DNA of 63,740 bases, counting the filler, from Sluysia triapertura (lineage: Eukaryota), in NCBI GenBank assembly GCA_046118255.1. It is 5 parts of 5 records of this genome, joined end to end, with 100 filler letters (N's around TTAATTAATTAA, not from the genome) between each part and the next. Parts side by side here need not be neighbours in the genome. Positions count along the whole stretch, not along the records: positions 16,040 to 27,213 come from JBJNIA010187856.1; 4 more parts are not named here. One strand, given 5' to 3'. This document shows, piece after piece, positions 13,431 to 63,740 of the stretch. A model generated the notes under the pieces. That model had not been told where the DNA came from. It saw only the letters and a list, made by a program, of their open reading frames with translations, and did no database searches. The translations under genes were made by a program, and so were the position numbers. Each line of letters opens with the position of its first letter. Positions within the stretch are counted from its first letter, which is position 1.

Positions 13431-13994
13431 TAATATCGCTTGATATTAAAAGAGTTCTGGAATCTGAGGGAAAACGGCATAGTAAATAAGTAATATGATG
13501 ACGGTATTGGCGTTAATTGTTAGAAAGAGAAAGAAAATAAATAAAAATAAATTATGGAGTATCGTAAGAGCATGAACAAAGTTAAATGTGTTAAAAGAAA
13601 TTCCATTTAGTTTATTATTTAGAAATTTTAATTACAAATTTAATGATTTTTGATGTAACGAGTGCTATACGTGTTGAAAAAATTTGATTTTTAGTGTAGT
13701 GTGATGTATTAAAATTTTGTGTGAATATGTTATTATTATTATTGTTATTATAATACATTATTAGTGTAATAAAATATTAAAATTATTATAAAATCATAAA
13801 TATTTATTTAAAGTATTTAAAAAAATTTTTGAACAAATTAATATTTAAAATTTTTGTTTGAACAAATCAATGCTCAAAGTCAGTGCAAATAATTATATAA
13901 ACACAAAATTTGAAGATTCACAAATAATTATTTAGTTAATACAGTGTCAATTTAAAACCTTTCAAGGATCTATTATTACTCGAGGAAATTATAA

Positions 13995-15384: not shown

Positions 15385-15934
15385 TCAGTCTGTGACAAGA
15401 CTTAAATCGTGCAAATTAAGTTTTTGGAATTGTGATTTAAATAAAATTAATAAATCTAACAGTTGCATAAAACAATTAAACAAATCGGTGGTCATCCATG
15501 CTTTCGAATTTACGTGGTAATTACAGTATCTTGCAACATTAAATCTTTTTAAACATCTTGGTTTCTTGCTATGTCCAATAACAAAAGGTGTAATTTTAAT
15601 TGATCCACCAGCATTTGAACATAAAGCTATGGTCATACTAACTTTAGATTGTTTTGTCATTTTCTTCACTTGATGAAATCGTTCTTGTAAGAAATGCTTG
15701 AAAAAAAGTCCAGTTTCACTCATATTGAGCATAACTCTGGGTCAATTCATGTCATTTTTCCAACCATTTTTTTCTATGGGCTGAAATATCAAAATCATTC
15801 ATTGAATTTTCTTCTTCATGGAGAACTTTCAATTTCAGATTAAATCTATAGAACCATCCTTTGTTGAATTGCAGGTCATCAACATTTAGTTTTTGTCCAA
15901 ATTCCTTTGCTTTTATAATAATTTCATCAATCAC
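15385..15934 (-). mobile_element. Tigger/pogo (CENP-B-like DDE_1) transposase remnant
   Basis: FNKGWFYRF (HTH), NMSETGLFFK, VIGHSKKPRC, NSKAWMTTDLF; truncated by contig end. Confidence 0.92.
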
Positions 15935-15939
15935 GTAAC

Positions 15940-16039
15940 NNNNNNNNNNNNNNNNNNNNNNNNNNNNNNNNNNNNNNNNNNNNTTAATTAATTAANNNNN
16001 NNNNNNNNNNNNNNNNNNNNNNNNNNNNNNNNNNNNNNN
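15940..16039. other. Artificial contig-joining spacer
   Basis: 44 N + TTAATTAATTAA (stops in all six frames) + 44 N. Confidence 0.97.
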
Positions 16040-16666
16040 GACTTTTAGAATCAGTAAATTACAACTATACATTTTATATTTAAAAACTGACAAACAAAAT
16101 CTAATTAAGTTAATTGCATTGAGCAAAAGGAAACATCTATTTTTAATGAAGAATTCCTCCATTATTCGAAATTCATATTCCACTAAGTCGTGTTGCCCCC
16201 AGCCGTTCCAGATTTTAATTTTGTAATCTAAAATACAGAATGATAAAGATAAAAAGTCAAATCTTACGCATGAATTCTTACCATGTACCATCTTTCTCGT
16301 AAACTTAAACGGACGCACTGTAGTTGTTATTGAATATCTTGGAGTAACGGTTTCCTTTCTTAAAAGTAATGGTTCCATCGGTTTCCGATTAACTGTTTTC
16401 AACGGATACTTCTTAGATCGTGACGAACATACAGAAAATTTCACAACTGATAGATATAATAGAATATTTGATTCTTCATCAACACCTATAATGAATGAAA
16501 TAGTTAATGATCTAGTTCCTTTTGGTTGATCTTGAAGAATTCTTTTATTAATTATGTACTTATTCCTTCTAAGCAATAGACTTGATTTAGTTTTTCTTCT
16601 ACATATGAATAGATTATAAATCATCAGAAAAACACCCTTTGACACGAATAATTGTTCCTGATTCAT
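16040..16666 (-). CDS. Uncharacterised ORF, putative DnaQ/DEDD-like nuclease; runs into the gap
   Basis: Open for more than 200 codons; blocks FIIGVDEESNILLYLSVVK, RPFKFTRKMVHGKNS and WNGWGQHD are shared with 34524-35030. Confidence 0.45.
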
Positions 16667-16927
16667 TTCATTGATAACGTAGTTTAGACATAAATCATTA
16701 GTGATTTACAACATGTTGATAATCTAAAAATATTTTATAACAATTTATGTTTATAATAAAACAAGGAAATGGAATTTTAGAATCGCTCATGATTATATTA
16801 CTCGAAAAAGAAACTTTTGATATAACAATCAAACGGGTAAATTTTAGTCGATTGAGGTTAGCAATTGAATCAATATCATCTTTTTGGTTTGGTCTATGAG
16901 CTTTACCAATTTTACAGCAACTTATAG

Positions 16928-17227
16928 CTAGTCTCTTATTACAATTCTTATTTCATCTTTTTCTTTATCGTCCATCCAAAATGCTTTAGTGCAAAGATGA
17001 TCTTGATCTGGGATGGGTGAGTCTTCATCAAAACTGCTCTGACTCTGTAAAATACTGTTAAAATTATTTGGATCATGATTGGAAACATTATAAAAGGTAG
17101 CTGCTTGATTCTGAACTTTTCTACGATTACAAAAAGGTACTATCACGTAACCATTTGAAACTTGTTCAGCTTTTTGCTTTAGGTCTTGCGAATTTTCACC
17201 AAACTCATTCGATTTTGGTAACATCAT
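16928..17227 (-). CDS. Uncharacterised 99-aa ORF, 5' part of the same cassette
   Basis: Lies just downstream of two hairpins/CCAAT boxes (17345-17490), same strand as 16040-16666. Confidence 0.35.
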   Translation of the reverse strand: MMLPKSNEFGENSQDLKQKAEQVSNGYVIVPFCNRRKVQNQAATFYNVSNHDPNNFNSILQSQSSFDEDSPIPDQDHLCTKAFWMDDKEKDEIRIVIRD

Positions 17228-17344
17228 TACATAAATCAGTTAGATTAAACAAGATTTTTAATTTTTTGATTTAAAGTTTTATAATTTGCTTTTTTTGCAG
17301 TAAATAAAACTTTTGATGTTGCTTTCTGTAAATTTTGGTTGGTT

Positions 17345-17490
17345 ATCCAATCACGACTTTAAAAATTTACAGTAAATAATGTGAGTCATGATTGGATGTT
17401 GGTGTAGCAGAATAACATGTGGTAATGAACCATCATCAATATTGACATGTTAATAAAAATGACGAATAAAGTGTCACTATTGATGATGGT
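17345..17490 (-). promoter_or_regulatory. Two adjacent inverted repeats, one with paired CCAAT boxes, heading a gene cassette
   Basis: Arms 17345-17358/17384-17397 (13/14 match, 25-nt spacer) and 17429-17447/17472-17490 (18/19 match, 24-nt spacer). Confidence 0.6.
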
Positions 17491-17937
17491 GACAATTAAA
17501 ATGATTTAATAATATTGTTATTATTATTATTATCAAATAAAATTAAATCACATAAATCTTTCTCTTAAAATTACATAATCTTGGCTTTCAAATTCTTTAT
17601 TGCTTCTAACATATTAAATCAAAAGGAATTAGTAATATGTGAAGGAGCAACATAATATGATATACCATGGTTAAATTATCGTTGCTGCCTTCCACAAAGA
17701 AATGAATTCTTTAAGACGATATTAGAATTATTTTGAATCTTTGAAGATGAAAAATGATTTCAGCTGTAAGTGAAACAAAGAATATTAGAATAAATTCTTG
17801 AGATTTATTTAAGTTTTGTAATTAAAAATACGATTTATGCATTGAATGTAATGGTTTAAAAGGTTTGTTAAAAGGTTATAGTTTATTTGATTTAAAAGAC
17901 TATTACAAAATACATCTTGGCGTATTTACACTGTTGT

Positions 17938-19200
17938 TGTAGAATGTTAATAATGGTTGTGTAGTTGAAATGGGTTTGAATTAGTTGTAATGTAAATGTT
18001 TTCTATGTTTCAGGTATTTGTTAATGTTGTTGAATGGTGTCATTGTATTTGTAACTTAAATATTATGTGTTGTGGTTTTGATTTGGTTTGAGAGAATGAC
18101 TATTGCGTGGATGTTATGGATTGTTTCGTATTAATTATCAAAGTATGGTGTGAGATGAATGGTTGAGAGTATTAGACGAGTTGTTTAAGAAGTATATGTT
18201 GTTGAATTATTATAAATGTCGAATGTTGTTTATGATGAATCAGTTAATGTAATTCGATAATATGAAATGTGATTGATTTAGATGTTATGTTTTTTGTAAA
18301 CTGATTGTTGTGATTTGATAATGTTAAGTATGATTAACATTTAAAAATTGTGAGATTTTTAGAAAATTTAGAATTGTGGATGTTGGTCACTACAGTTTGT
18401 ATGGTATGAGACCGTTGTGAAGACTTAAGATGCCTTGAAGCATGAGATACCTTTGAACTTCCGAACCTTTGGATCATTGAGACCTTGTTGATCTTTTGGA
18501 ATCTTTGAAGACGTTTATGACCTTAATAAACTTTTGAGATCTTCGAGTAACCTTGTAAAATGTTTTGAGCCTTTGAAATGTTCAAGAACTAAAATCATGA
18601 TTCATAATATTAAGGATAAATTTAATAAGTTAATAATTTAAGTAAAAAAAGTAGAAGAAGGAATTAGAGCGGTGAAGTATTTAGCAATTTTATAACCGTA
18701 ATGAAACCTTTAAACTTAGAATAAATTAAGTTAAAATAATTAATTAATTAAATAAAATCTTAATTAACTTAATTAGGAAAAATTACGTTTGTGTGAATAA
18801 CTTCTGAATGAGGAAGGCTATGTTAAAATTGTAACTGTACTTGTATGTGTTTCAAAGAGACCTTCAGATGAAGATAACGTTTGACCGAGTTCATGCTAGG
18901 AAAGCCTCTATATTGAGAAAAGTCGAATTTTAATAAATTTTTAATTTAAAATGCTAAAAGAAAAGTTTCATATTTAGAATGTTGAAAAGATAATGAATGG
19001 AATATGAGATTATCGCTTTGAAATAGGATAATCCTAAAATGAGATCGAAATGTTTGTAAAATTGTTTGTTTGGGAATGAGAACCTTAAACATTTTCCATT
19101 AAAAATTTGAGTGTAAGGAATTAAAAATTAATTAAAGTGTTAAAACTAAAGTTAAATTCATCACTTTTAAGTATGTCAATAATAATAATAATTGTTATTT
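17938..19200 (+). mobile_element. Probable LTR (17938-18394) with degenerate internal sequence
   Basis: TGTAG...CTACA termini followed within 7 nt by a PBS-like TGGTATGAGACC; decayed coding-like sequence follows; no TSD. Confidence 0.45.
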
Positions 19201-19233
19201 TAATGTAAGGTCGAATAGAGTAGAAGAAAAATG

Positions 19234-19445
19234 ATAGTTGATTGTTGTAGAGAAATCATATAAAATTCATTACACTTCATCACATAAAAACATCTCATAC
19301 ATACATAGAACATTAAACAAACTACTTAACTCATTCAACAAACATAACCATTGTACATAATTATCATGAACTATAATTATTGTTATTATAATTCCAGTCG
19401 TAATAAAAAATATAATAATTATTAGGATTATTGTCGTATAATATG
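19234..19445 (+). repeat. Dispersed repeat, copy 1 (copy 2 at 63395-63609)
   Basis: Colinear blocks CATCACATAAAAACATCTC, AAACATAACCATTGTA, TCATGAACTA. Confidence 0.85.
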
Positions 19446-19626
19446 ATTTCCACGATTGTCACATAATAACTTTCAAATTAACATCAACAATACCATTATT
19501 TTTAAATATATAGTAAGTATGTTATCGTTATCATTATTATTTCTTTTATCTTTATCATCAATTTTTCTTCTTATTCCTGTGTTCTTCTGAACATATACAT
19601 ATTTATGTATGTGTGTATCTGATAAG

Positions 19627-19728
19627 GTACATGCCAATTTAATTAAAACAGCTATTCAAGAATCACCTGAACAACAATTAACCTTAAGCGAGATATATAA
19701 CTAGATGCAAACTGAATTCATGTATATT
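19627..19728 (+). pseudogene. FoxP: FoxP-type forkhead domain fragment
   Basis: HANLIKTAIQESPEQQLTLSEIYN*MQTEFMY versus FoxP YASLIRQAI.ESPEKQLTLNEIYNWF...F.YF; conserved Trp is TAG (19702-19704). Confidence 0.85.
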
Positions 19729-20721
19729 GATTTAACTATAAATCCATATTATGTTGGTCACCGCAAGAATTAGGTCCAAATTGGCAAATTTATGCCGAAA
19801 CCTATTGTTGGATTAGTGGTACTTATTTATCTAGCAAAGTACATAAATCGAGTCAATCAACTAACTCTGATTCTAACTCTGTCAAAATCATAAGTTATTA
19901 TCAGTGGTTTTGCAATAGGTTTGTTGCTACATTTTGTTTTATGCACAATACCAAGCTACATGTGGAATAATGTATCGCAAATTATTGAACTATTGTGGCT
20001 AAATCGCAAAACTGAATATTCTCGAGAAATTCTGAAAATGAAATCCGTAGAAGCTGAAAATCGTGCTGTAGATATATTATCAAAGGAAATAAACGAAAGT
20101 TTAAAGATTTACGAAAGAAATTACCAATCTTTGTCCAAATCAGTATGGTCAATATTTTGCTACAGATATAATCTTTGATCTAGCATATTTCTCTTCTACT
20201 TGATAATAAAAGTATTATTATTATTTCATACCACGAAGTCATCGGATTTCCGAGTAATATTTGATTTATTTCTATAATAAAATACTGAAGTTCATTTTAA
20301 TTGAAAACAGTCTATTAACACAATTCTCCTCACAACGGAAACGACTCCAAGTAATGTGGGTAATACTAAAACAAAGAATATCAAAGAATCAAATATTAGA
20401 TACTATTTTCACAAGGTAAAAATTGTAGGTGAACTAAATTTGTGAGCAGGTTATGAACTGATTCTCAGCTAGAAAAAAGAAGAAATTATGTGATCGATTT
20501 CATTGAATATAAAAATTGGTGGGATTTTATTTCATAGTTATTTTCATTATTTTAAAAACGTTATACTTCTTCATATGCATTAATTGATAAATAAATGGAT
20601 ATTAAATTATGTAGTTCAAGTGGAAAATGGAGAAGAATGTGATACAAGATTTATCATTACAGAGATAACTTAAAATAAGTACTTACGGCTCTATCCAACC
20701 ACCAGATTGTTTCCTAGAAAT

Positions 20722-20878
20722 TGTTAGACTTCATAAAATGGACTGACCGGGGATCGAACCTGGGACCTTCGCTGCGCAGTTCGATTGCCCTACCACTGAG
20801 CTATCAACCCCATCTAACAATTTTATTTTATTATAGTCAATTTTACCAAATGGCACCTTAGGCCTTTTTGCCCCAACA
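20722..20878 (-). mobile_element. 157-bp solo-LTR-like element containing a tRNA-like gene
   Basis: TGTT...AACA termini; AAAT 4-bp TSD on both sides; splits the innexin right after FPR. Confidence 0.85.
20739..20810 (-). ncRNA. tRNA-like Pol III unit with aberrant anticodon arm
   Basis: GGGTTGA-TAGCTCAGTGGTAGGGC...GGTTCGATCCCCGG-TCAGTCC-A-TTTT: A box, B box, 7-bp acceptor stem, T4 terminator. Confidence 0.8.
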
Positions 20879-21597
20879 AAATTATATAATAAAAAATATT
20901 AATATTAATTTGCTGTAAAAAAATAATCAATACAAATATACATTTGTGAAAATTTCTTCCTTTCATTACGTTGTCGGATTTTTAATACTAGTAACATTAA
21001 TAGCAAATAATTTGAAGTACAAATTAACATCGCTTTGAATTTATGTATATTTATGATTTACTAAGATCTTAGTATATACTGTATTGTAAATTAATAACCG
21101 AAGGATTATTTTAAATTTTATTATTTATATTTATGAATAGTCGAAAACAATCGGTTAAATCAGTTCATCAATTAACTCAAGATGAAATTCAAGCTACATA
21201 TTTTTTTCACTCCATTTATCTAGAATAAAAACGAAATAATCAAATTTGGATATTTCATAGTACTTCATTGTGGTGTTGTATTAATATTTATTTTATTATA
21301 TACACTATCGAAAATGATTAATTTTTCAATTTATGATCACGAATTTTTTCCATTCCTTCAAGTCAATTTTCTCTTGTTTTGTATTATCAGCCTTAGTATG
21401 TTTCTCATATCATACGGATTCATATTATACGGCATTTTTATTATGGCTAGAGACATTTTTATCTGATAAACAAAAAATAGATTTTAATTTAAAATATTCA
21501 ACCTATACAATGTATAATATAGTTCAATTTTCAAATATCGATAATTTTGGAAACGCGTGATCCTTTACCTTGTATCTACCACCAATTTTTTAATTGT

Positions 21598-21870
21598 TGT
21601 AGGTATGATTATATGTGTTTTTACAACATTTTATCGTTTTATTAATAAACTTTTAAACTTTGTTGATATTTTGTTAAAATTTTTATCTTTAAAAGGCCTT
21701 AAGCCTAGTTCATTAATTAAGAAGTTTAATATTGTGTTAATTGTTTTAAAGTTAAATTGTAATTGTTTTTTATTAGGGAAATTTTTTTATCTTTTTTAAT
21801 ATAAATTTAAAAATAAAGTTGAATATTTATAATAAATTTCTAATATTTAAATCTAAAAGCCCTCCTCACA
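21598..21870 (+). mobile_element. Solo LTR, 273 bp
   Basis: TGT...ACA termini flanked by a perfect 5-bp TSD ATTGT; related copy at about 1215-1513. Confidence 0.8.
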
Positions 21871-22284
21871 ATTGTTAATCGAATTGTTATGTTTTGAATG
21901 ACAAGTCGTACCATGTAAATGGCAAAGTCATTTTAGTCGGTTTAATCTTTAAAAGAGGTTTTGATTATTTGTGTAAGAGTAATTCTTGACTGAGAATGTA
22001 GAAATGATTGGATGACAAAAAAGGTATAAATTAGAATACTTAGGCATTCGCAAGAGGCCACGAAAAAGAATATCAATGCTTTTGGTAATGTTTTTTAAAA
22101 TTTTTTTATTTAAAATAAATATTAATTTTAATCAAGACTCTTTTGCCATAATATTTTAAATTTTATTATTGATCTAGTTAAAATAAATATAATTTTGCAG
22201 TAATCTTCTTACTTAATATTAATAACTATTACCCCCAAAATTAAGCTCTTAAAAATCAAATCAAAAATAAGACAATAATATACC

Positions 22285-22370
22285 GGTAAGCCTTATTCTA
22301 ATATTGTTAATATTTAATAAAATTATATGATAATTAATTAAATATTAACAATACTAAAATAAGGCTTGCC
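22285..22370. repeat. Hairpin with 34-bp stem
   Basis: GGTAAGCCTTATTCTAATATTGTTAATATTTAAT matches the reverse complement of 22337-22370 at 31/34. Confidence 0.85.
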
Positions 22371-25300
22371 ATTTAATTGTATTTTTAAACTTCCAAAAAT
22401 TTTAATTTCCAAATAAAAATAGTTTCAAATTACAAATAAAATTACAAAATTAAATCATAAATTATAAAAATAATCAATATAAAAATATTCAATTAAAAAT
22501 GGTTATAGGTAAAAATGAACGTCTCAATGATCAAATGATTCATACAAATCATAACATAACATATACATATATATTTTTAGGGAACAAAAATAAATATTAA
22601 TTTATATTTCGCTTATTGGAGTTATAAATGTAATAATATTTGTATTAAGTATTAACATACAGCGATCATTTACATTTTATATTTTCGTCGTTGCCTTGAC
22701 CGTTTTTATTGATTCTTATTGTTCTTATGTACAATAACAAATTCAGTATCAGCTAAATTATTTACCATATTTCTCACTCTATACAAAATTTGAAAAATAA
22801 TTAATTTATCTGATTAATTAATTTATTGTATTAATACTAAAATAAAATTCAAATTTCAAGGTAGAAATCCTTCATACTTTTTATATTTTATCGATTTTTT
22901 TTTGTATTTTCTATTTTCCTGTTTATATTAATTTTAAATGTCTTTTTGACGAAAAAGTCAATAATTAGTTTGTCTTAAATATTTTATTTTTATTTTTATT
23001 CCATTATGTAAAGCTATTATATTTAGAAATCACTTTGTTGAATTTATTAATTAATATAAAAAAAGAATCAAATAATGAATATTTAAAAATTATTTAAACA
23101 ATTTAATAAATGAATAGAAAATTAATTAAACAATAATTATAAAATTTTAAAAAGTGACCAATGTGGACTACATTATCGCAAAATATGTGAAAAAAACTCA
23201 CGAAAAATTGTGATTAATCTTCGTGAGTGAACTGAAAGAAAAAATTTTTCTACATAACCAATGAGATGGAATTTCTATTTTAAAAATAATTATTGGAAAA
23301 TTTTCATTCAAAAATTCTTATTTTTATCGAAAAGTATTAATATACAATTTTTATAGTTCAGATATAGAAATATTTTCTTGATCGTAAGATGTTTCCGTGA
23401 TTTTTTTCAGATTTCAATAATATCAATAATGATTTTAAATATATCTTTATCTATTACTTATTGTTGTCGGCATAATTATAATGTTTTGAAAATTGTATAT
23501 AATGTGCAATATTTTATGATAAAATCGAATCTTTTTTATTTTTGGAAAGACCAATGCTAAATAAAGCATATATCAAAATAATTGATTTAATTTCATACCA
23601 TGATAAATCATTTTATTTCAACTCTATATAAAATTTGCGACTTTAAAATTGATTGGAATTTATGTTACATTTTCAAAATTGCCCTTTAAAACTGATTTAT
23701 AATTAAAAATTAAAACAAAATATGATTTATAATTTTAAAATGAATTTTAGAGAATTTTGTCACATTAATTATTTTTATTTTAATTAGTCCAAAATCTAAA
23801 CGTACAGTATTATTTTAGCTTCATAAAAATTACCTGGAATGCAAATTAATAAAAGTATTACTAAAATTATACATTATTTAATTAGGTATATTAAAATTAG
23901 TTTTAAAATTGAAAATTTTGTTAAGTAATTAAATTAAAGTTGCATAAAAATTAAGCCTAAAATACATTTTATGAGTTTTAATTGCGTGCAAAGAATGATT
24001 AATTTGTACGAATATTGAAAATAACAGAATTTAAATAGTTGCAATTAAAAAGATTTCTATACATATTTAATGTTGAATAGCTCAAATTTAACGGTATATT
24101 CTTTAAATATTCCATGCAATTATTAAAAACACATAATTTTAACGAGTAAATTTATTTTATTAATATTTATCATTTTTAGATACATTGAACATTACATCTT
24201 TTTCAGAGTCATTAAACTCATTAATTCATAATTTTCCTTGATATTTTTATTGTTAATCATATTTTAATTTCTAAATTTTTGATTTTTATAAAATTTATAA
24301 AGAAATAAATATTAATGCAATAAATAGTGCAAAGTATATTAAAATTAAGAATAAAAGAACAATAAAACAATAACAATTATAATTAATATATAATTTTACA
24401 TGGATTCAAAAATGAACATAGAAGAGAATATTTATTGTATTGTTAAATACCAATAAAAATATAAATATTAGAAAATTTATTAACATTATTTTAATAATAA
24501 TAATCATAATCATAATTATAAAATTAATAATATTATATCGCACTCAGATCCGTGAAGAAAATTCAAAATTGTAATTTTTACTGAATCATTCAGCAAAACA
24601 AATTTTTCAAGTAAGAAGATTTCTTTTAAAGAAGTGTATTATCTGCTAAAATTTTCTAAATATCTCTTGGAAATCTTAAAATAAATGTTTTTAAGATATC
24701 AAAATTTATACAGAACCTACAGTGATAATAAGGTATATTATAGGTGGTATACCGATTATGTTTCAAAAATATAAAAGCAACTATCGACAAATGTTAAGTT
24801 ACTGGAAAATTAAGAAATATTTATTTTTCGTATCTTTGATTTATTAGATTTATATAAATTAATATATTTTATTATTAATTCTTTATTAGAATTTTCGTAT
24901 TCTATTCAGTCTTTCAGTAATCTGTAAAAATAATTTAAATAATTAAATATTCAGATTTAATGAAAAATCTGTACAGTTTTAAGAAAGCTTGTAAATTGTT
25001 AGAATTGGATCATCTCATACTAAAAATAACATATGAAATTATATCTCATCCGTTGTACTCAGATATTATTTCTCCTGAAAAATAGACGTCGCATCACGAC
25101 GATCCTGAAGAGGACTTTCATATAATCAGATGATGTCAATTTTTTCATACTGGAATAAAACATCTAAAGTGACATAAAAATACATAAATTGTGATGATGC
25201 TTATTTTGATTAATAAGTTATTTAGAAATTATTCAATTTTAATTTTTAAATAAAATTAAATTATAAATCGAAAAATAAAATAATTGTTTATATTTATTTA

Positions 25301-43608: not shown

Positions 43609-44466
43609 TGCTGTGGTTTTTCTAACACTTGACCTCCAGCAAAATATTTTTGAGTAGGGTTCAGTTACAGTAAACGTTTTACAACGTACTGTTGGCGCTC
43701 TGTAACTAATAAGTTAAAAGAGATACTTAAAAAGTAACGTTTCTAACTAAAAAAATTAATTGAAGGGTTCTTACAATTACTAAATAATTTAATATTTAAT
43801 TCAATAATTTAATAATTAAATGATGTAAAAACACTAATTCTTTTATTAAAAAATACAAAAATCCAAATAGCTTAATACAGTAAGTTATGAAACAAGATAA
43901 AATAATCAATTTTACAGATTAAAGCTCCGTGAGCGTTTAATCTGATTCTAATAAAGTTTAAATGGAGTTTATCCCTCAATATATCGGGACTTTATAAATT
44001 AATAGGGCATTTGAGTGAATTTTACGATTTTAACTTCAAAAGTTAAAATCTCCCTTAACAAATGTATAAATTACCAAAAGTTTGATTGAATTCCACAATT
44101 GGGCGATGGATATCTCGTAATTATCTTGAATAAAATTACCAAAATTGCAAATACCAAGATGGCGACTTTTTTTGTAAGATACTAGTTTATATGCTAGTAA
44201 TCATCGATTGAAAATTGATGGAATGTTCGTAATTATTCTAGAACATTCTAGAAGCTTCTAATCTATTTTTATTTTATAATTAATTTTATTTTCTTTTTTG
44301 GAAAATAATTGTTTTCAAAGTAATTTTAAAAATTAATAATTGATTTTAAGATGTTTTATATGTTTTTAATTAATTTTTTTGATAGTTTTAAATATTTTTA
44401 ATTAATTTTGCGGTGTAACTTTGACATATTTGAATTATTTCATAAGGTTGTGATGACAACCTAACA
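43609..44466 (-). mobile_element. Second, inverted solo LTR of the 39462-40265 family
   Basis: Shared AGAAGCTTCTAGAATG, CCCGATATATTGAGGG and AACTTATTAGTTACAGA blocks and matching termini. Confidence 0.8.
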
Positions 44467-46658: not shown

Positions 46659-47641
46659 TAGGGTTATTCCTTTTTATACCAACCAATATTCATTTTCATT
46701 TTAACCTGTATTCATTTTTATATTAAGCACTATTCAATTTTATATCAACTAATATTCATTTTTATATTAACATAATTAAGAATGAATAAAAAAAATTTCC
46801 AAAAATGAAGGTTCAAACTTAAAAAACGCGGTTTGTTCTATTATGAAATAAATCATAGCTGTTTATATTATTCGTAATATTAACATTTTTAATCAACTGT
46901 TTTAATCTAAAATAAAAGTATATCTCAATAACCCTTAAAAATGGAAAGAAAATCTAGGAAAAACATTACTAAAGAAGTTCCGGAAATAATAGTATCAATG
47001 TCTCAAGCAGAAAAAGCTTCAATTAAAAAAATTTCCGAAATGTTTAATATTAGTCGCCAAGCGGTCTGGAGAATCATAAAAGATCATGAAAGTGGAAAGA
47101 TTTTTACAACTTCTAACTAAAAAAGAAATGGTTTCAATGGACAATTCAATCACACAAAATGAAATCAAAGAAAAAATCATTGGCTTAAAAAATTTAAATA
47201 TTTCCCAACCTATGATTTGTAGAAAACTAAAAAAATGGGATTCAGTAGAAAAAGAGTGACAATGGTACCAATTGAAAGAAATGCATTAGAAAGGATAAAT
47301 CAAAGAAAAATTTATTCAAATGAAATTTCAAGAATTGCTGATGAAAATCTCATATTTTTTGATGAATATGTTTTGACCTTTGACAGTTTTAAAATTGTAT
47401 ATCTTTAATAAAATTCATACAAACCAGTAGAAAACTATTCAAATGTTTAAGATACTCATCCTTTTAATATTTTTAACTTACATATTTATATTGAACAGAA
47501 TTCATTTTTCAGCTAAGTCGGATTTAATTTTTGAAACATTTTTTAACTATGTAAATATAAAAATGAATATTAGTTAATATAAAAATGAATATTAGTTAAT
47601 ATAAAATTGAATAATACTTAATATAAAAATGAATAACCCTA
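46659..47641 (+). mobile_element. Internally deleted Tc1/IS630-like transposon
   Basis: TAGGGTTATTC...GAATAACCCTA TIRs with TA flanks and ~21-bp subterminal repeats; transposase from ATG 46941 (HTH ISEMFNISRQAVWRII, GFSRKR, LIFFDE) cut after the first catalytic Asp. Confidence 0.9.
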
Positions 47642-48972: not shown

Positions 48973-49716
48973 TTGTTATCTTTTTCAATCTTTTATAAAC
49001 TTTATATAAAATTAGAAATTATCATAATTTAAAAAATAAAATAAAGGATTCAATAATATGCAAGGAATTAATTAAACATGAGATGCTACAGAAATATTTG
49101 TTTTGTAAACAAATTTCAGAGTTTTGGTGGTCAACTTGTCACTTTAAGAATTTTATTCCACTATGACACAATAAAATCATCCTTGAGAACATTCACAATT
49201 GTTATCATCATCAAACATTTTAAACATAAAATTTCACAACAGCAAAATTTTCCTCGTCATCGAAAATCACCAAAAATCAAATTAAAAAATTTTTAAATTA
49301 AATCAACTCATTGCATATAAAACCATATTCTATAATATTTTAACATTTTCATATTTTATCTCCTTTACATCCACTAAAACATTATTCTAACCTTATTAAA
49401 ACAATCATACTTCATAACTTTACAATATCAAAATTACATTTCTTAACATTGCACAACAACCTTTTAGGATATATCAAAACTGTTCCTATATTTTATTCCT
49501 TTCAGATCCACTAAAATCAATTTCCATATCTCAAAACATTTTAGTTCTTTCTAAACTAAAGAGATATTTAAACTAGAAAGAAAGTTTATGTTTTAAAGAT
49601 AATAAAAAGTTTATACTTTTATTAGTTTTGTCATTTATTTTATACATTTTTGTATTATTGTTTTTATTATTATTATCATCAATTTTATCTAACATTAATT
49701 TTATAAACTAATAATT

Positions 49717-49775
49717 ACCACTATCAATGGTGACGTAGTTTCTATGTATAAATCGTTGTCATCATTGATAGTGGT
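49717..49775 (+). promoter_or_regulatory. Inverted repeat heading a gene cassette
   Basis: Arms 49717-49734/49758-49775, 17/18 match, 23-nt spacer; homologous to 17429-17490. Confidence 0.65.
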
Positions 49776-49996
49776 TGGCTTGTCAATATGAGAAATATCA
49801 GTGCTATTATTGGTCGTCCAACCAGAGTAAGTCTGTTCATTATTTTTATCACTCTTGTTGAACGCCAATGAAAATTTGCAACGATTTACAAGTTTGTATT
49901 CATTGTTGTTGCATAAAATAAATAAAATTGCATAAATGACTCACAATAACAATTAATAACATTATTGGCAGATAAATATATTTATAAAAATTATTA

Positions 49997-51250
49997 ATGA
50001 ATGATAATCTTTTGTTGAATTTAATGAATAAATTTATGATCGTTAATCCCTTAGTTAAACATTATGAAAGTGGATTCAGTATGACCGTTTTAGATGAACG
50101 TGATATCGTCAGTGGTCTGTATAGTGTAGAAAGTAGTGATTTTAATATAGGTCAAAAATGAAGGAAATTCTGAAAGTGAAACACAATCTCATTATAATTC
50201 GAGAAATCAAATCAGTAATAATAATTTAGAATTTACTTGTCAAAATCTAGAGCGGAGGTTCACTCACCTAAGCAACATCGAAAGTATGGTCAATGCAATT
50301 AGACACGAAGTTTGTGACCTGAGAACTCTCATCAACAGTGTCTGCAACAAAACTGGATTAAGCATTAAAAATTCAATCGACTTTAGTAGTTAAAATATTA
50401 ACCGAAAATTTAAAAAAAGATGCCTTTTATGAATTTATGATGCGAATTAATTGAAAATAGTAAAGCAAAAACTGATATGACTCAAAAGATACTGAGTTTT
50501 TTAATAAGAAGAGATGTAATGAGTCGTATTAATATGAGTGGTCGAAATCAAAAATTAAAGTTCCCACCAATAGTTACTAGTATAGTTCATGATTACTCTA
50601 AACTATATAAGATAGTTTTTGCTGCCACTGAAAACAAGATATAAAAAATGTGTCTTGAATATGGAAAAGATTAAACCTTTTGAGATTCTAGTAATGAATT
50701 TAGGAGAAAAGTCAATGCCAAATAAAGTTCTACTAATTAACTCAACTGAGTTAAACAAGGACGATAAAAATCGTTTGGAGAAGTCTCAAATATATCATTA
50801 TATCGATTCCTGAAATTAACAAAATGCAAATAATGTGATCAATAATTTAATGTCCGATCGATCAGCTACTATTAATTCAATTCATCGCAAATATGTCCGC
50901 GATTCATCAAGTTTAGATGTGTCGTAAATGGACACATTGTCCTTATTCAATTTATCAAGATGACGAATGTGCAAAATTCGGAACTAAATGCGTGTATGTA
51001 CACACTGATAATCAATTACTAGACTGTAAAGTCAACTGTGCATCCCTAACGGATCATCTCATTAGATTTGCAGATTTATTCACAAGCATCGGTATGCAAA
51101 CTCTAGAGATAGTTGACGATATAACTTTTGTTGGTAATAATAATAAAGTAAATTCTTTTACAATTATATCAAAGATATTTTAATTTTAAATTCTTTTTTA
51201 GATAGTGAAACGTGGTTATCAAAAAATTTGCGTATACAGATCCAACTTTA
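49997..51250 (+). pseudogene. Decayed ORF with BEN/DUF4806-like segment and CCCH-type zinc finger
   Basis: MTQKILSFLIRRDVMSRINMSGRNQKLKFP from 50477; MCRKW..C...C.KFGTKCVYVH in ORF 50917-51183. Confidence 0.5.
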
Positions 51251-51880: not shown

Positions 51881-52176
51881 ATTATATAATTGTCGTTGTT
51901 AATTTAAAAATATAAAAACACAACATTATTATCATTAATATTATTAACTATAATTATAATATTAACTATAATTAAAAATTATTGTTAAAATCATTATATA
52001 ATTATCGGAATAATTTTTGTTCCGATCTAAAATTAAGAAATCATTCTTTAAGTAACTTGCAACATACACATAAAATAACTAAATTAATTTTATATAATTA
52101 TTTAAATCTTTAATTATTATTATTTAAAATATTACACAAAAATTATGAGCTCGATAACACATTAATATTTATTTAG

Positions 52177-52385
52177 TAATTTAAGAACCCTCAATGTTAA
52201 TGCTTATTATGATCCGGCTCGTAATCAGATTTTATTTCCTGCTGCTATTTTACAACCACCTTTTTTTGATCCTGGGGTACCGCGTTCATTAAAATATGCT
52301 GGTATTGGTACTGCTATTTCTCATGAATTAATTCATGGATTTGATGATACTGGTTCCAAATTCGGACCATATGGAAATATTCAGA
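52177..52385 (+). CDS. M13 (neprilysin/ECE) metallopeptidase exon, cut by contig end
   Basis: TTTAG acceptor, then VNAYYDPARNQILFPAAILQPPFFDPGVPRSLKYAGIGTAISHELIHGFDDTGSKF with intact HExxH. Confidence 0.93.
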
Positions 52386-53621: not shown

Positions 53622-55651
53622 AGTCAGCAAATAATAATAATGAATACAATGATAATTATAATCACAATAATGATAATAGTCAGTGACTATTATTTTTATT
53701 TCGTCTTTGTATAATAAAAATTTAAATTTTATATTTACTCTTAAATTGGTAAAATCATTATAAATTTAATGATAATATTTCTAATTTTTATTTTAAACTA
53801 ATTTTAGAAAGATTTTAATAAATATTGTCTACAATTTTATTAAAAGTATTATTATTATCACTCTAGTATTTTGAAAGTTCTATTATTATCATTCTTAAAT
53901 GCATTTAATCACATCAATTCATTACTAGTTTTCTAAATATTATTATTAGTCATCAATATCAGTACATTTCATTTATCAGTTTTAAAGGTCATATGGCCTT
54001 ATAAGAAGTGTGAATATAAATAGCGTTTAAAAACGCTTCGTCTCACAATCAATTATCACACACTGAAAAGCAGTAAAACCACTATTTTAAATCACTAGTT
54101 GATACATATTAGTTTAAGTTTTAATTCTAAGAATTTATCAAAAGAAACGACTTCATATAAATCTTATTTTTCAAGAAGTATCAAAGACGAATTTTTAAAA
54201 GTTATTCTCAATATTTTGATTTTTTTCGAAAAAATTTATCAAGAAGAAGACATCATTATATTTATTCCTTCACAATTCATTTCTAAAAAATTCAAGGTTA
54301 GTTTCTAATTAATAATGTAAAAGTTTAGTTAAAAGTTTATAGTATAAAGTCTAAAGTTTGGAATCAGCACAATTAGTTTTAATATCCGAAAATTAAATTT
54401 ATTTTATGTTTTAATATATATTCGAAAATTAGAGTTTAAAGTTTATGTTTTAAATTTACATTAACATAATTGGTTTTAAATATAATATAAATTCAAATAG
54501 AATTATTTTATTTCAAATTTTTAAGGATTTTGTCATCAAACCTCCAAATTAGTAAGCTTGATTATTGTTATATTTAAATTATTAAATTATTAAATCTTTT
54601 TATAATTATTGTTATATTTATTATTAAATTATTAAATCTTTTTATAAAAATCTTTTTATAAAACTTATTATTATGAAATTTAATTATAATTTAATTATTT
54701 ATGAAAATTTTCTTGTTTAAATGATAAATTTTGTTTAAATGGACTAACCTTAACAGGTAAACATTTAGTATAAATAGGCTTATTCAATTCATAATTTTCA
54801 CAACAACAATTCTTACAATTACAATTGTAAATTACTATCTGCCACTTGCTAAGATTTTTCTGACGACATTAACGCAGAATTTTCAAATTTTTAATTTATA
54901 TTCAATCTTTTGGATCGTTCTCAGAAAGAAATCGTCGATAACGCTACAGTCACACAATTCGCCAAATTACTGAAATTCACCGTTACTTGTTACTGTTAGT
55001 CTATTTTGATAAGTTTTTTCGCAATTATTAACAATTGCTAAGTAAAATCAACGTAAAATATAATTTAAAAGAATTTCGTTTTCTTTCACGAAAACAAAGA
55101 AAAATCTCTTCTAAAATCATTATTATAAAGATTATCATAATAATCTGTGTAAAGTTAATTATTATATTATTATATTATTATTACCTTTTTGAGTAATATA
55201 ATTTCATCATTATTTTTGTTGATTTTAATTTAAAAATCGTACAGGTTCGAGAAAGAACCTTAGCAAAATCATTAATTATTGATAAGGGTTCAGTTTACTT
55301 GAACCCAAGTAAATTATACATTAACGGTTTGTATAATCAAACCGAAGTAAACTCACAATATTATAAGTTTTTAATATATTAATAAAATCTATTATAAAAT
55401 CTATTGTCCCTAAAATTTTTACTCATTTAACTATTGATATTTGAATTTTTGATCATTATTATTTTAACATTTAATATCACATTAAAGTATCACTGATATA
55501 CAAGAAATCCTTCTTCTTAGTCTTGACTATTAAATTTAGTGACCTCCATTTTTACTTTACAAAAATCCAACGGTTGGCCGTTCAGTCTGTAAGTCCAATA
55601 CGTTGGTGGACTCACTGACATCTTTTAAGTTTTATTCATAGCATACATACC

Positions 55652-55960
55652 TTGCATATAGCTCATCGTCATGAAACGACTATCATTAGACAAGAAGATT
55701 ACATCACTCAAGTTATCGCCTTTTGTCAATACTCCGCAGACGATCATTGGATTTGTCTGAAGAACGGAGTAAAGTATCGACATACGCATATGGTCGAAGA
55801 ATCAGAAATCTTCGAACTACTCAAGAATCTTGATTCATGGATAATTACACATACCTAAAAGGGTTGTGAATGAAAATTCATGAAGTGATATTTACTTTTT
55901 CCGATAACAATAACAACTTTATGGACTCAAATAAAATACACATGTATAACAGAGCGACCA
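55652..55960 (+). pseudogene. Decayed ORF with possible HUH-endonuclease motifs
   Basis: HWICLKNGVKYRHTHMV and, in the same frame past three stops, LLFPITITTLWTQIKY. Confidence 0.3.
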
Positions 55961-56502
55961 AATCTCAGAATTTTAATCGTCAATATTTCAAATAAATATA
56001 TTCATGTTTACATTCGTTTAATTTTTATTTATGAGTTAAACTTTTCATTCAATTTGTTAATTATAATGAATCTACGAATACAATTTAGAATAATATAGAA
56101 TGTTTAATTAAATGTTTTGAAAAATTTCTGTTACATTCAATACTAAACGTAGTTTTATCATCAATTACAAAACTCACACTACTAAATTGATAATATGCGT
56201 TTACTTATTACAAAAATGTACTAAATTAATTAATTAAAGTAATTTTAAAAAGTCTAAAGTTAAATTTAAATTAAATTTAATAAAGTCAGATATTTCAACC
56301 AATTAATTTCTGCTCTCTTGCACCAAGTAAAAACTAAAATTGAATGTAGTTTCCCATGCTGTAATGCGTTATTTAAAACGCCAAATCTCATAAACTTATA
56401 ATTTAAAATCATTTCCTTCATTTACAATTTATTTAGTTGATATATTGATAAAAAGTAAAACATTGTGTTGTAAAAAATCACTTATTCATTTAAAAAATGC
56501 AA

Positions 56503-57319
56503 TAAACTTAAGTTTTAAGAAACAAATGGTTGATTTATTTGTGCAATCCTAACAATTGCAGTATCACTCACTGGTAGATTAATAAGTGTTTAGTAAATTA
56601 AATTAATAAATTAAATATTTAATTATTAAGGGTAATTATGTGTTTAGCATTAGCTAAACTTATAAACTTATTATAAACTTCAGTACAAATTCAGATTTAT
56701 GTATCGGACGAGCAAGCGAATAAAGTGATGGCAAAAGGCTCAGTTAGAATAGAAAAGCTAACAAAAAATACGATAGAACAAGCGAAAAAATGGTTGAAAA
56801 ATCAGTTTGCATACTCATTTAACAAACCAATGAGAAGAACATATGCAGCACATCAACGTAAAACAGGGGAACCACATAAATTTACGGTAAGCTGTTTTAA
56901 TGGAAATAATTCAATAATCAAAAATTAATAACGGTTATATTTTTAATTTCGCTGATATATTTTGAAGATTTGCACAGTAGTACCAGTTAAATCATAGAGT
57001 GTTAAAAATATGAGTGAAGCAGTTATGAAAAATGACAAACCTATAAAATTTCAAACAGATTGATGTTAAGAGTTTTACAATAAAGGCGACAAAAGTAAAA
57101 CATGAAATTCATCATTATTCTATATTCAGTTATTCGTAAAGTTTATAATAAGTAAAATAGCTAATGCTAAACACATAATTACCATTAGTATTTAAATACT
57201 TAATTTATTCTAATACAACACTTATTAATCCACCAGTGAGTGATAATGCCATTGCTAGAATTGCACAAATAAATCAACCATTTGCTTTTAAATTATGTTT
57301 CTTTTAATACTTAGGTTTA
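56503..57319. mobile_element. Foldback element with ~180-bp inverted arms enclosing an integrase fragment
   Basis: Arms 56503-56680 and 57139-57319 are reverse complements with indels; outer ends are TA. Confidence 0.85.
56681..57138 (+). pseudogene. Maverick/Polinton-type integrase fragment
   Basis: KKWLKNQFAYSFNKPMRR, NNGYIF..ADIF*RFA, VPVKS, KPIKFQTD*C*EFYN, IHHYS match the Polinton integrase layout. Confidence 0.8.
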
Positions 57320-58743: not shown

Positions 58744-59100
58744 TGTCATAATTTATGGGTATTTACAAAAAAATATAACAGATCTCTCAGTTTAAAACTG
58801 ATGAAGTTTCTAAGGTCATGGATTTTGATACAACAAAGAAGCTTTCTTTACTTTATCGCATTTAAAGAGCTAAGTGATTATGAAGTATTTAAAAAGGATA
58901 TTGAACCAAAGTGGGAAGATCCTAATAATATAGAAGGTTGTAGATGGATTATTAGTTTTAATAAATTAGCTTCCTTGAAGCACTTTAAACTTTTAATTAC
59001 AGCGTTTATTAACGATATTCTTCCAAATTTTAAATCAAATGGTATATAACTAACTGTTATGTCATTGTCGTTTGGGAAATGTATAAAAGGCTGTAGATCT
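58744..59100 (+). pseudogene. eIF4E: Divergent intronless eIF4E-like pseudogene
   Basis: LWVF; (shifted frame) KVMDFDTTKKLSLLY; DYEVFKKDIEPKWEDPNNIEGCRW. Confidence 0.85.
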
Positions 59101-63394: not shown

Positions 63395-63609
63395 ATAGTT
63401 AATGTGTGTAGGGAAATCATATCAAAATATCAACATTTCATCACATAAAAACATCTCTTACATATGCAGAACATTAAATAAACTACTTGATTCATTCAAA
63501 AAACAAACATAACCATTGTATATAATTGTCATGAACTACAGTTATTGTCGTTATAAATCCATTCGTATTAAAATGTATAATGATTATTATCATTATTGTT
63601 GTTTAATGT
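63395..63609 (+). repeat. Dispersed repeat, copy 2 (see 19234-19445), interrupted by the tRNA-LTR element
   Basis: Colinear with 19234-19445 up to the TGTTAGAC junction. Confidence 0.85.
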
Positions 63610-63740
63610 TGTTAGACTTCCTAAAATGGACTGACCGGGGATCTAACCCGGGACCATCGTCTACGCAGTCCGAATGCTCTACCACTGAGCTATCAGCCCC
63701 GTCTAACTTTTTCATTTTCAATATATTCAATTATACTACT
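63610..63740 (-). mobile_element. tRNA-containing short LTR-like element, third copy (cut by window end); tRNA-like unit 63627-63699
   Basis: GGGCTGA-TAGCTCAGTGGTAGAGC...CCGGGTTAGATCCCCGG-TCAGTCC-ATTTT; same TGTTAGACTTC terminus. Confidence 0.85.

Follow-up and report, generated by a model that had tools for sequence, protein, structure and literature searches.

Sequence comparison indicates that two loci of the window, designated D and E, carry one homologous twin-hairpin module in dispersed repeats. The window is the whole stretch of DNA analysed (63,740 nt, GC 23%). It consists of contigs joined via N-linker-N spacers, which makes the loci at 17 kb and 49 kb separate, dispersed sites. The order at both was the same: a G-poor leader, an AT tract, hairpin 1, hairpin 2 and an open reading frame (ORF). 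The explanation that we favour, at about an even chance and from the sequences, is that the module is a promoter-region structure of host-gene-capturing elements that are non-autonomous and probably of LTR type. The features are shown in Table 1.

Table 1. Position, strand and properties of the features found at loci D, E, A and B and of element H
Feature	Position	Strand	Properties
G-poor leader, locus D	17540..18394	-	G 4.6%, C 21%; candidate 5' end TGTAGTGACCAAC at 18394
Upstream hairpin (third), locus D, 57 nt	17638..17694	-	z -3.8 and -3.9
AT-trinucleotide tract, locus D (follows leader, precedes hairpin 1)	17500..17535	-	
Hairpin 1, locus D	17429..17490	-	18/19 bp, spacer 24, inner TGACA...TGTCA, 29.4 bits
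Hairpin 2, locus D	17345..17397	-	13/14 bp, spacer 25, 21.7 bits
Cargo of D	16040..17239	-	orphan coding region, split over three frames, cut by contig end, multi-contig
G-poor leader, locus E	49123..49640	+	G 5.8%; decayed candidate start TTTGGTGGTCAAC
ATT-like tract preceding hairpin 1, locus E	49648..49716	+	
Hairpin 1, locus E	49717..49775	+	17/18 bp, spacer 23, homologous to 17429-17490
Hairpin 2, locus E	49813..49866	+	spacer 22, 20.1 bits; arms homologous to 17345-17397
Cargo of E	49997..51180	+	orphan ORFs, broken; weak match to Unkempt-type CCCH finger at the end
Borderline hairpin behind G-poor leader, locus A	10592..10643	-	13/15, spacer 22; not alignable to D or E
Possible decayed hairpin-1 copy, locus A	10847..10912	-	19.3 bits, rough E 0.06
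Bulged hairpin, TGAC/GTCA repeats, after AT tract, locus B	12537..12598	-	
Cystathionine gamma-lyase copy, decayed, locus B	11688..12293	-	residues ~20-239, E 2.3e-5
Element H (2.6 kb)	19246..21870	+	TGT...ACA, 5-bp duplication ATTGT, G-poor leader

Inverted repeats and the twin-hairpin module

The window was scanned for inverted repeats with a composition-aware search (spacers 3-60, at least 3 GC pairs) and 100 local shuffles as control. The earlier note had listed six repeats with a fixed 22-25-nt spacer. The arm and spacer counts given for four of them (10592, 17345, 17429 and 49717) were recovered, while the one at 12537 paired only with bulges and the one at 13473 was due to chance. The strong repeats at 17345, 17429 and 49717 are real. 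The repeat at 10592-10643 (17.4 bits, fold z -2.6) was borderline, its level being reached by about 5 matches per shuffled window at any spacer of 3-60. That at 12537-12598 scored 13.6 bits ungapped, with an RNA fold z of -4.4 on the plus and -2.1 on the minus strand, and that at 13473-13514 scored 9.8 bits (fold z +0.5 and +1.0). Two repeats had been overlooked, namely 49813-49866 and the upstream hairpin 17638-17694.

Spacer-length enrichment, checked within the window for a range (22-25) picked post hoc, was present at 17 bits or more (6/13 matches, shuffle mean 0.33, maximum 3) and at 20 bits or more (4/7, shuffle mean 0.04, maximum 1), and was gone at 14 bits or more (6/52, P 0.15). The six matches of at least 17 bits began at 3927, 10592, 17345, 17429, 49717 and 49813; four of these make up two homologous pairs, and the 3927-3983 match sits within a DDE_3 transposase-like fragment. 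Since similar spacers largely reflect homology, and the repeats listed for it include two weak or chance ones of six, the fixed spacer is not supported as an independent signal. The inner GAC...GTC was likewise present, at gaps of 23, 26, 27 and 31 nt instead of a fixed distance. AT-trinucleotide tracts adjoined 12598, 17490 and 49717.

Both hairpins of the module were contained in 150 nt (D, 17490 to 17345; E, 49717 to 49866). Folded as DNA, the whole twin modules gave z of -6.4 (D) and -4.6 (E), and 0/200 shuffles equalled them. The arms of hairpin 2 carried two inverted CCAAT boxes at D, while hairpin 2 of E extended through ATTGG...CCAAT; locus E also had an AT-rich hairpin near 49545-49590. 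Between D and E the module arms were 71-79% alike and were altered on both sides together. The earlier claim that 17429 and 49717 are homologous and keep their symmetry despite letter changes was borne out by the 19 pairs of hairpin 1, with 14 unchanged, 3 changed on both sides, 1 changed on one side and 1 unpaired in one copy; two of the three double changes adjoin each other and possibly arose in a single event. Hairpin 2, aligned by hand, showed three substitutions and a 1-nt gap common to both arms, and its arms differed at 4/14 positions on both sides, CCAAT itself included.

Identity was 25/33 for the arms and 46/92 for loops and linker (P 0.014), with the arms being how the homology was recognised. 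Loops and linker aligned no better than shuffles between D and E; the 45 nt downstream of hairpin 2 aligned better than shuffles (P 0.003). A pair-shuffle control (63/500) was uninformative with two sequences. Only two clean module copies were available, and the loci were picked for symmetry, which also doubles motif counts. A longer MAFFT alignment of the two loci misaligned the hairpins and was dropped.

The hairpin-1 model search returned 41 matches at E up to 10, one of which, on the expected strand, was a weak additional candidate. This candidate, at 10847-10912, was the best match apart from the two training copies, and nothing was found at loci B or C. No hairpin had an Rfam match, and the Rfam matches in the window were two tRNA-like stretches only. 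A pattern scan of viral contigs for the hairpins gave 0 matches. Pattern matches in metagenome contigs (22/22 in DNA of 43-58% GC, none with a BLAST match to the window) were for these reasons rejected as coincidences. No description of the twin-hairpin module was found in the literature searched, with subscription papers, transposon databases and Repbase out of reach.

Leaders, cargos and the bounded element H

The window contained seven strongly G-poor stretches, in which G made up 4-7% of the cargo strand, the overall figure being 11.7%. Five of the six spacer-22-25 matches (3/4 loci) lay just 3' of a G-poor leader, such zones making up 5.7% of the window, while the leaders at 2.8, 9.0 and 26.2 kb had no such hairpin. 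When nine leaders were aligned, no pair reached z 3 or above and only composition was common to them.

Copy evidence was obtained from contigs of one public run (X1) over the region 16040-25400 at 80% likeness; the run contained 0.34 of sampled words, its counts refer to the difference rows (40 of 551) and joints (15 of 448) that were listed, and summed depth of its contigs is not copy number. Over a unique stretch there was a single contig (2003 nt), which differed at one site. Among the sites listed, those of the D cargo were each common to 1-15 contigs, site 17576 to 16, those of the outer leader (17931-18110) to 44-45, and those of the repeat neighbouring locus D to more than 110. Summed depth was 440-1900 at 17557-17695, like the cargo, and low at 18444, outside the leader start. 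The D leader and cargo are both multi-contig, although short contigs cannot prove their physical linkage.

The protein-coding remnants differed from locus to locus. The D cargo gave no credible protein or domain match and no viral relative; a match at E 3.7e-5 spanned 38 residues of a target protein with 7 matched stretches and was not credible, and a single-sequence fold (pLDDT 32) was discarded. The CCCH match of the E cargo (PF25427, E 0.021) was below the cut-off, and other searches were blank. What had been taken by eye for DUF4806/BEN at 50441-50641 and THAP at 16928-17239 received no support in the searches. At locus B, 146 codons cover 163 residues of cystathionine gamma-lyase, which leaves no room for an intron; the cargo is thus colinear with a host protein and intronless, as in LTR retrocopies, the latter read from the cargo alone. 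The cargos of A and C had no named match, and PHROG matches at C (E ~5e-5), to families of unknown function, were put down as probably compositional. No transposase domain was found in the cargos; CMC (CACTA/Transib/Chapaev) elements would have one, together with CAC-type terminal inverted repeats at their ends. The earlier observation that the hairpins stand ahead of different decayed ORFs holds at D and E, and the B cargo is intronless.

Across the window, decayed fragments matched innexin, forkhead, M13 peptidase and eIF4E, and the nearest relative of a flavodoxin-domain fragment was NDOR1; these matches mark the host as an animal. The eIF4E and M13 peptidase fragments lay at 58744-59049 and 52166-52385, the latter cut by a contig end and possibly a real exon. 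Within 1700-3164, the NDOR1-like fragment (2138-2695, minus) stood behind a G-poor leader and a T-rich tract with no hairpin and was followed by sequence homologous to 22185-22287. At 55585-55858 a small hairpin preceded another weak match of the Unkempt CCCH type (E 0.14). On the minus strand of one contig (8000-13950), four leader/AT-tract/ORF units stood in tandem (C, B, A and a further one at 9.5-8.0 kb); they may be nested insertions or a multi-cassette unit.

Element H, a neighbour of locus D, was the one unit with an accepted boundary. It starts TGTAG and ends TCACA, with ATTGT on either side, and the best-supported of the listed joints (11 contigs) skips it, giving an empty site. Ends homologous to its own were found elsewhere (5' end at 63407, 3' end at 1513). 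Target-duplication scans gave chance matches at most starts, so only H was accepted, its duplication being agreed on by the joints and the two homologous ends. Its cargo consisted of forkhead and innexin scraps joined together. The 3' arm had AATAAA and then T-rich sequence. In the pair of homologous 3' arms (H and 1258-1513) the distance of AATAAA to the end was 226 and 236 nt. A third occurrence of the 3'-end motif AAGCCCTCTCCCA, at 28190-28202, had no T-rich arm.

The 5' and 3' arms of H did not align, which makes it one LTR-like unit with no two direct repeats, and its ends matched at 6/13 letters with no longer inverted match. TG...CA ends, a short imperfect inverted repeat and a 4-6-bp duplication were thus found together for H, and candidate 5' starts only for D and E. 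Both H ends fit TGTNR, an end pattern that belongs to Gypsy LTRs and Ginger in the available part of PMC2836005, and animal LTRs have AATAAA and then T/GT-rich sequence near the 3' end in that of PMC3601003. No primer-binding site or polypurine tract was found beside the ends checked, and no reverse-transcriptase motif (six frames) or mobilising enzyme in the window. No 3' arm like that of H matched after E. Neither a far end nor a target duplication was found for E, or for D, which stops at the contig end. No twin hairpin was found in H, so we infer its tie to D and E from architecture; H serves as a model for the unit and may be of the same family.

Other repeats were also observed. A tRNA-cored short repeat, the separate "tRNA-LTR" of the earlier note, occurred at 20722-20818 and 63610-63707, with a weaker copy at 6743-6867. 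It starts TGTTAGA, the copy at 20722-20818 ends TCTAACA, and it had the highest summed depth in the run X1 alignment (16040-25400). An element of about 800 bp at 56501-57303 had terminal inverted repeats of about 180 bp (84%) and an interior that was integrase-like by eye only, with no Pfam match. Long decayed inverted arms about 4 kb apart (39485-40265 and 43609-44369) may form a foldback-type element. Decayed Tc1/mariner and pogo-type transposase fragments lay at 3795-4061, 15385-15991 and 46932-47408. An 80-nt AT-rich inverted repeat with spacer 12 (22288-22367), possibly a small inserted element, stood beside a loose-end site of a very abundant repeat.

Explanations of the module

If the module is a promoter-region structure of LTR-type, gene-capturing elements, D and E would be units of the kind seen in H, and the module stems would pair in a single-stranded copy of the element. 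The cargo mRNA would have entered through template switching between the promoter and poly(A) sides during reverse transcription, with enzymes supplied by an autonomous Gypsy-type partner. CCAAT boxes in or beside the stems would drive transcription of the cargo. The stems would have been kept by selection, as folded RNA or cDNA signals, while master elements were active, and the few present mismatches would be decay after insertion.

A somewhat unlikely alternative is a pure DNA promoter, with symmetric CCAAT/TGACA factor sites, belonging to a gene-capturing DNA transposon or a duplicated host promoter; its arms would be kept equal by occasional template switching, and folding would play no part. 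In its favour, as in that of the LTR-type reading, five 200-nt modules contained CCAAT nine times against 2.0 expected and TGACA nine times against 2.3 (GC-matched), counts that symmetric arms double. At D, TATAAAA about 60 nt and ATGs 112-120 nt past hairpin 2, the first at 112 nt, speak for the DNA promoter; at E the first long ORF started about 130 nt beyond hairpin 2, and the locus A module had no CCAAT. Loops of 22-25 nt that are AT-rich are poor cruciform formers, which also counts for a DNA promoter. Template switching is described as homogenising inverted-repeat arms in the portion of PMC8604942 available. Planarian tissue-specific promoters contain AT-trinucleotide repeats and CCAAT boxes according to the accessible text of PMC10558129, so the module resembles a host-type promoter as far as that text goes.

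The pairing itself fits a pure DNA promoter less well. Locus E has no CCAAT inside either arm of hairpin 2 and the pairing is retained, which disfavours a fixed protein site; a site co-evolving with an element-specific protein is possible. Purely neutral homogenisation of the arms predicts arms as diverged as loops and is disfavoured by arms that are less so. No match to the DECA decamer was found within one mismatch at D or E. The earlier note had proposed a shared cis signal of a modular mobile system, in the form of a terminus, an origin or a dimeric binding site. A shared cis module of dispersed, modular, gene-carrying repeats stands, with symmetry kept while letters change. The plain dimeric site is a poor fit, because the hairpin-2 arms changed on both sides, CCAAT included.

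Production of small RNA was considered decidedly improbable. Hairpins of 55-65 nt would yield microRNA-like products, most likely from the anti-cargo strand, in the manner of foamy-virus U3 dumbbells. Two or three hairpins of precursor size do stand in a row, T4 runs are absent from the antisense twin modules and present on the sense strands, and 7/9 hairpins fold better antisense. The strand evidence is mixed, with hairpin 2 of D and hairpin 1 of E folding better on the sense strand, and with z-scores of the whole module that are better for the sense strand at D but for the antisense strand at E. However, the G-rich antisense strand favours G-U pairs anyway, the stems are of 14-23 bp with no Rfam match, and no T4 terminator follows in the next 100 nt or so of the antisense strand. 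The module also measures 150 nt with a linker of 31-37 nt, against 111-128 nt for the predicted foamy dumbbells in the available part of PMC6950176.

It is very improbable that the hairpins mark the terminus or origin of a Helentron/HINE-like rolling-circle element with AT tracts as its insertion sites. An AT-rich tract directly before hairpin 1 at B, D and E, the gene capture known for Helitrons, and DINE-1, in which a 13-bp subterminal repeat has an inverted copy 3-22 bp away (PMC4067079), would agree with such an element. Against it, a G-poor leader lies ahead of the hairpins at A, D and E, and the hairpins are internal, 904 nt (D) and about 594 nt (E) inside leaders with candidate TGTNR-type starts. 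Sites just outside the AT tract at D are multi-contig, and sequence repeated like the cargo beyond that tract argues against hairpin 1 as an element end. No third copy of the E arms with up to 2 mismatches was found anywhere in the window, in which D ends at a contig boundary. The terminus or origin of the earlier note was not upheld on the same evidence. Chance or unrelated palindromes within AT-rich DNA have an almost negligible probability; they explain 13473 and possibly 10592 and 3927, but four spacer-22-25 matches of at least 20 bits were obtained against 0.04 in shuffles, and the homology and equal arrangement of D and E refute them there.

A promoter-region structure of probably LTR-type elements is the reading retained here. 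A further proposal, which we hold to be quite unlikely, is a family of expression cassettes derived from a single LTR, with a promoter half bearing the folded module, an exchangeable captured gene, a poly(A) half and integration as one unit. If true, such a cassette would be a gene-shuffling vector giving each retrocopy a ready promoter, and its hairpins would be a copying or packaging signal. The origin of retrocopies and the source of their promoters are only partly understood outside mammals, and a constrained promoter-hairpin module ahead of changing host-gene copies is a tractable case of which many copies exist. With the two-sided changes, selection on pairing can be tested cleanly against homogenisation through template switching. 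These copies have decayed, and LTR and DNA transposons are already known to capture genes; new are the 49813 hairpin that completes the twin, the spacer statistic with its limits, and the empty-site boundary for the cargo-bearing element H.

Comparison with known systems

The defining parts of Gypsy-type LTR retrotransposons (two direct LTRs, primer-binding site, polypurine tract and gag-pol) were not found. Helentron, HINE and DINE-1 elements have a subterminal repeat 2-4 nt from the 5' end and a 3' copy, unlike the internal hairpins here. In DECA-CCAAT composite promoters, as given in the accessible part of bioRxiv 10.64898/2026.02.16.706105, TGAC(A) and CCAAT co-occur as in the module, but the decamer stands 11 bp from CCAAT; D and E have no decamer and no 11-bp spacing, and carry their motifs in inverted arms. 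The dumbbell pri-miRNA cassettes of foamy viruses, in the portion of PMC6950176 available, place two adjacent hairpins in the LTR promoter region like the module and add a Pol III terminator, whereas the module has no adjacent T4 and has T5 runs inside its sense-strand loops.

Ginger1/Ginger2 (PMC2836005) and Pack-TIR (PMC8277862) elements share TGTNR termini and capture of host sequence with the units here, as far as the accessible texts describe them. Ginger elements have terminal inverted repeats of 40-270 bp and mostly 4-bp duplications, while H has no long repeat and a 5-bp duplication. The planarian Burro giants, likened by description only and from the available part of PMC6431247, also carry borrowed host domains; their cargo is in internal polyprotein or accessory ORFs, and here it is between LTR-like halves.

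LTR-mediated chimeric retrocopies (Tan et al. 2016, PMC5131818, available in part) are likewise truncated host-gene copies without poly(A) tails that spread secondarily as non-autonomous units, and they join pieces of two genes, comparable to forkhead and innexin in H. Both LTRs flank their cargo, while the two arms of H, a promoter-side one and a poly(A)-side one, form no direct repeat; internal retrotransposon sequence was not found here. Solo LTRs of animal Metaviridae, in the accessible part of PMC3601003, have TG...CA ends and AATAAA followed by T-rich sequence, as does H, and their stem-loops conserve both arms, like the module; unlike in these solo LTRs, the cargo here lies between the two halves of an LTR-like unit.
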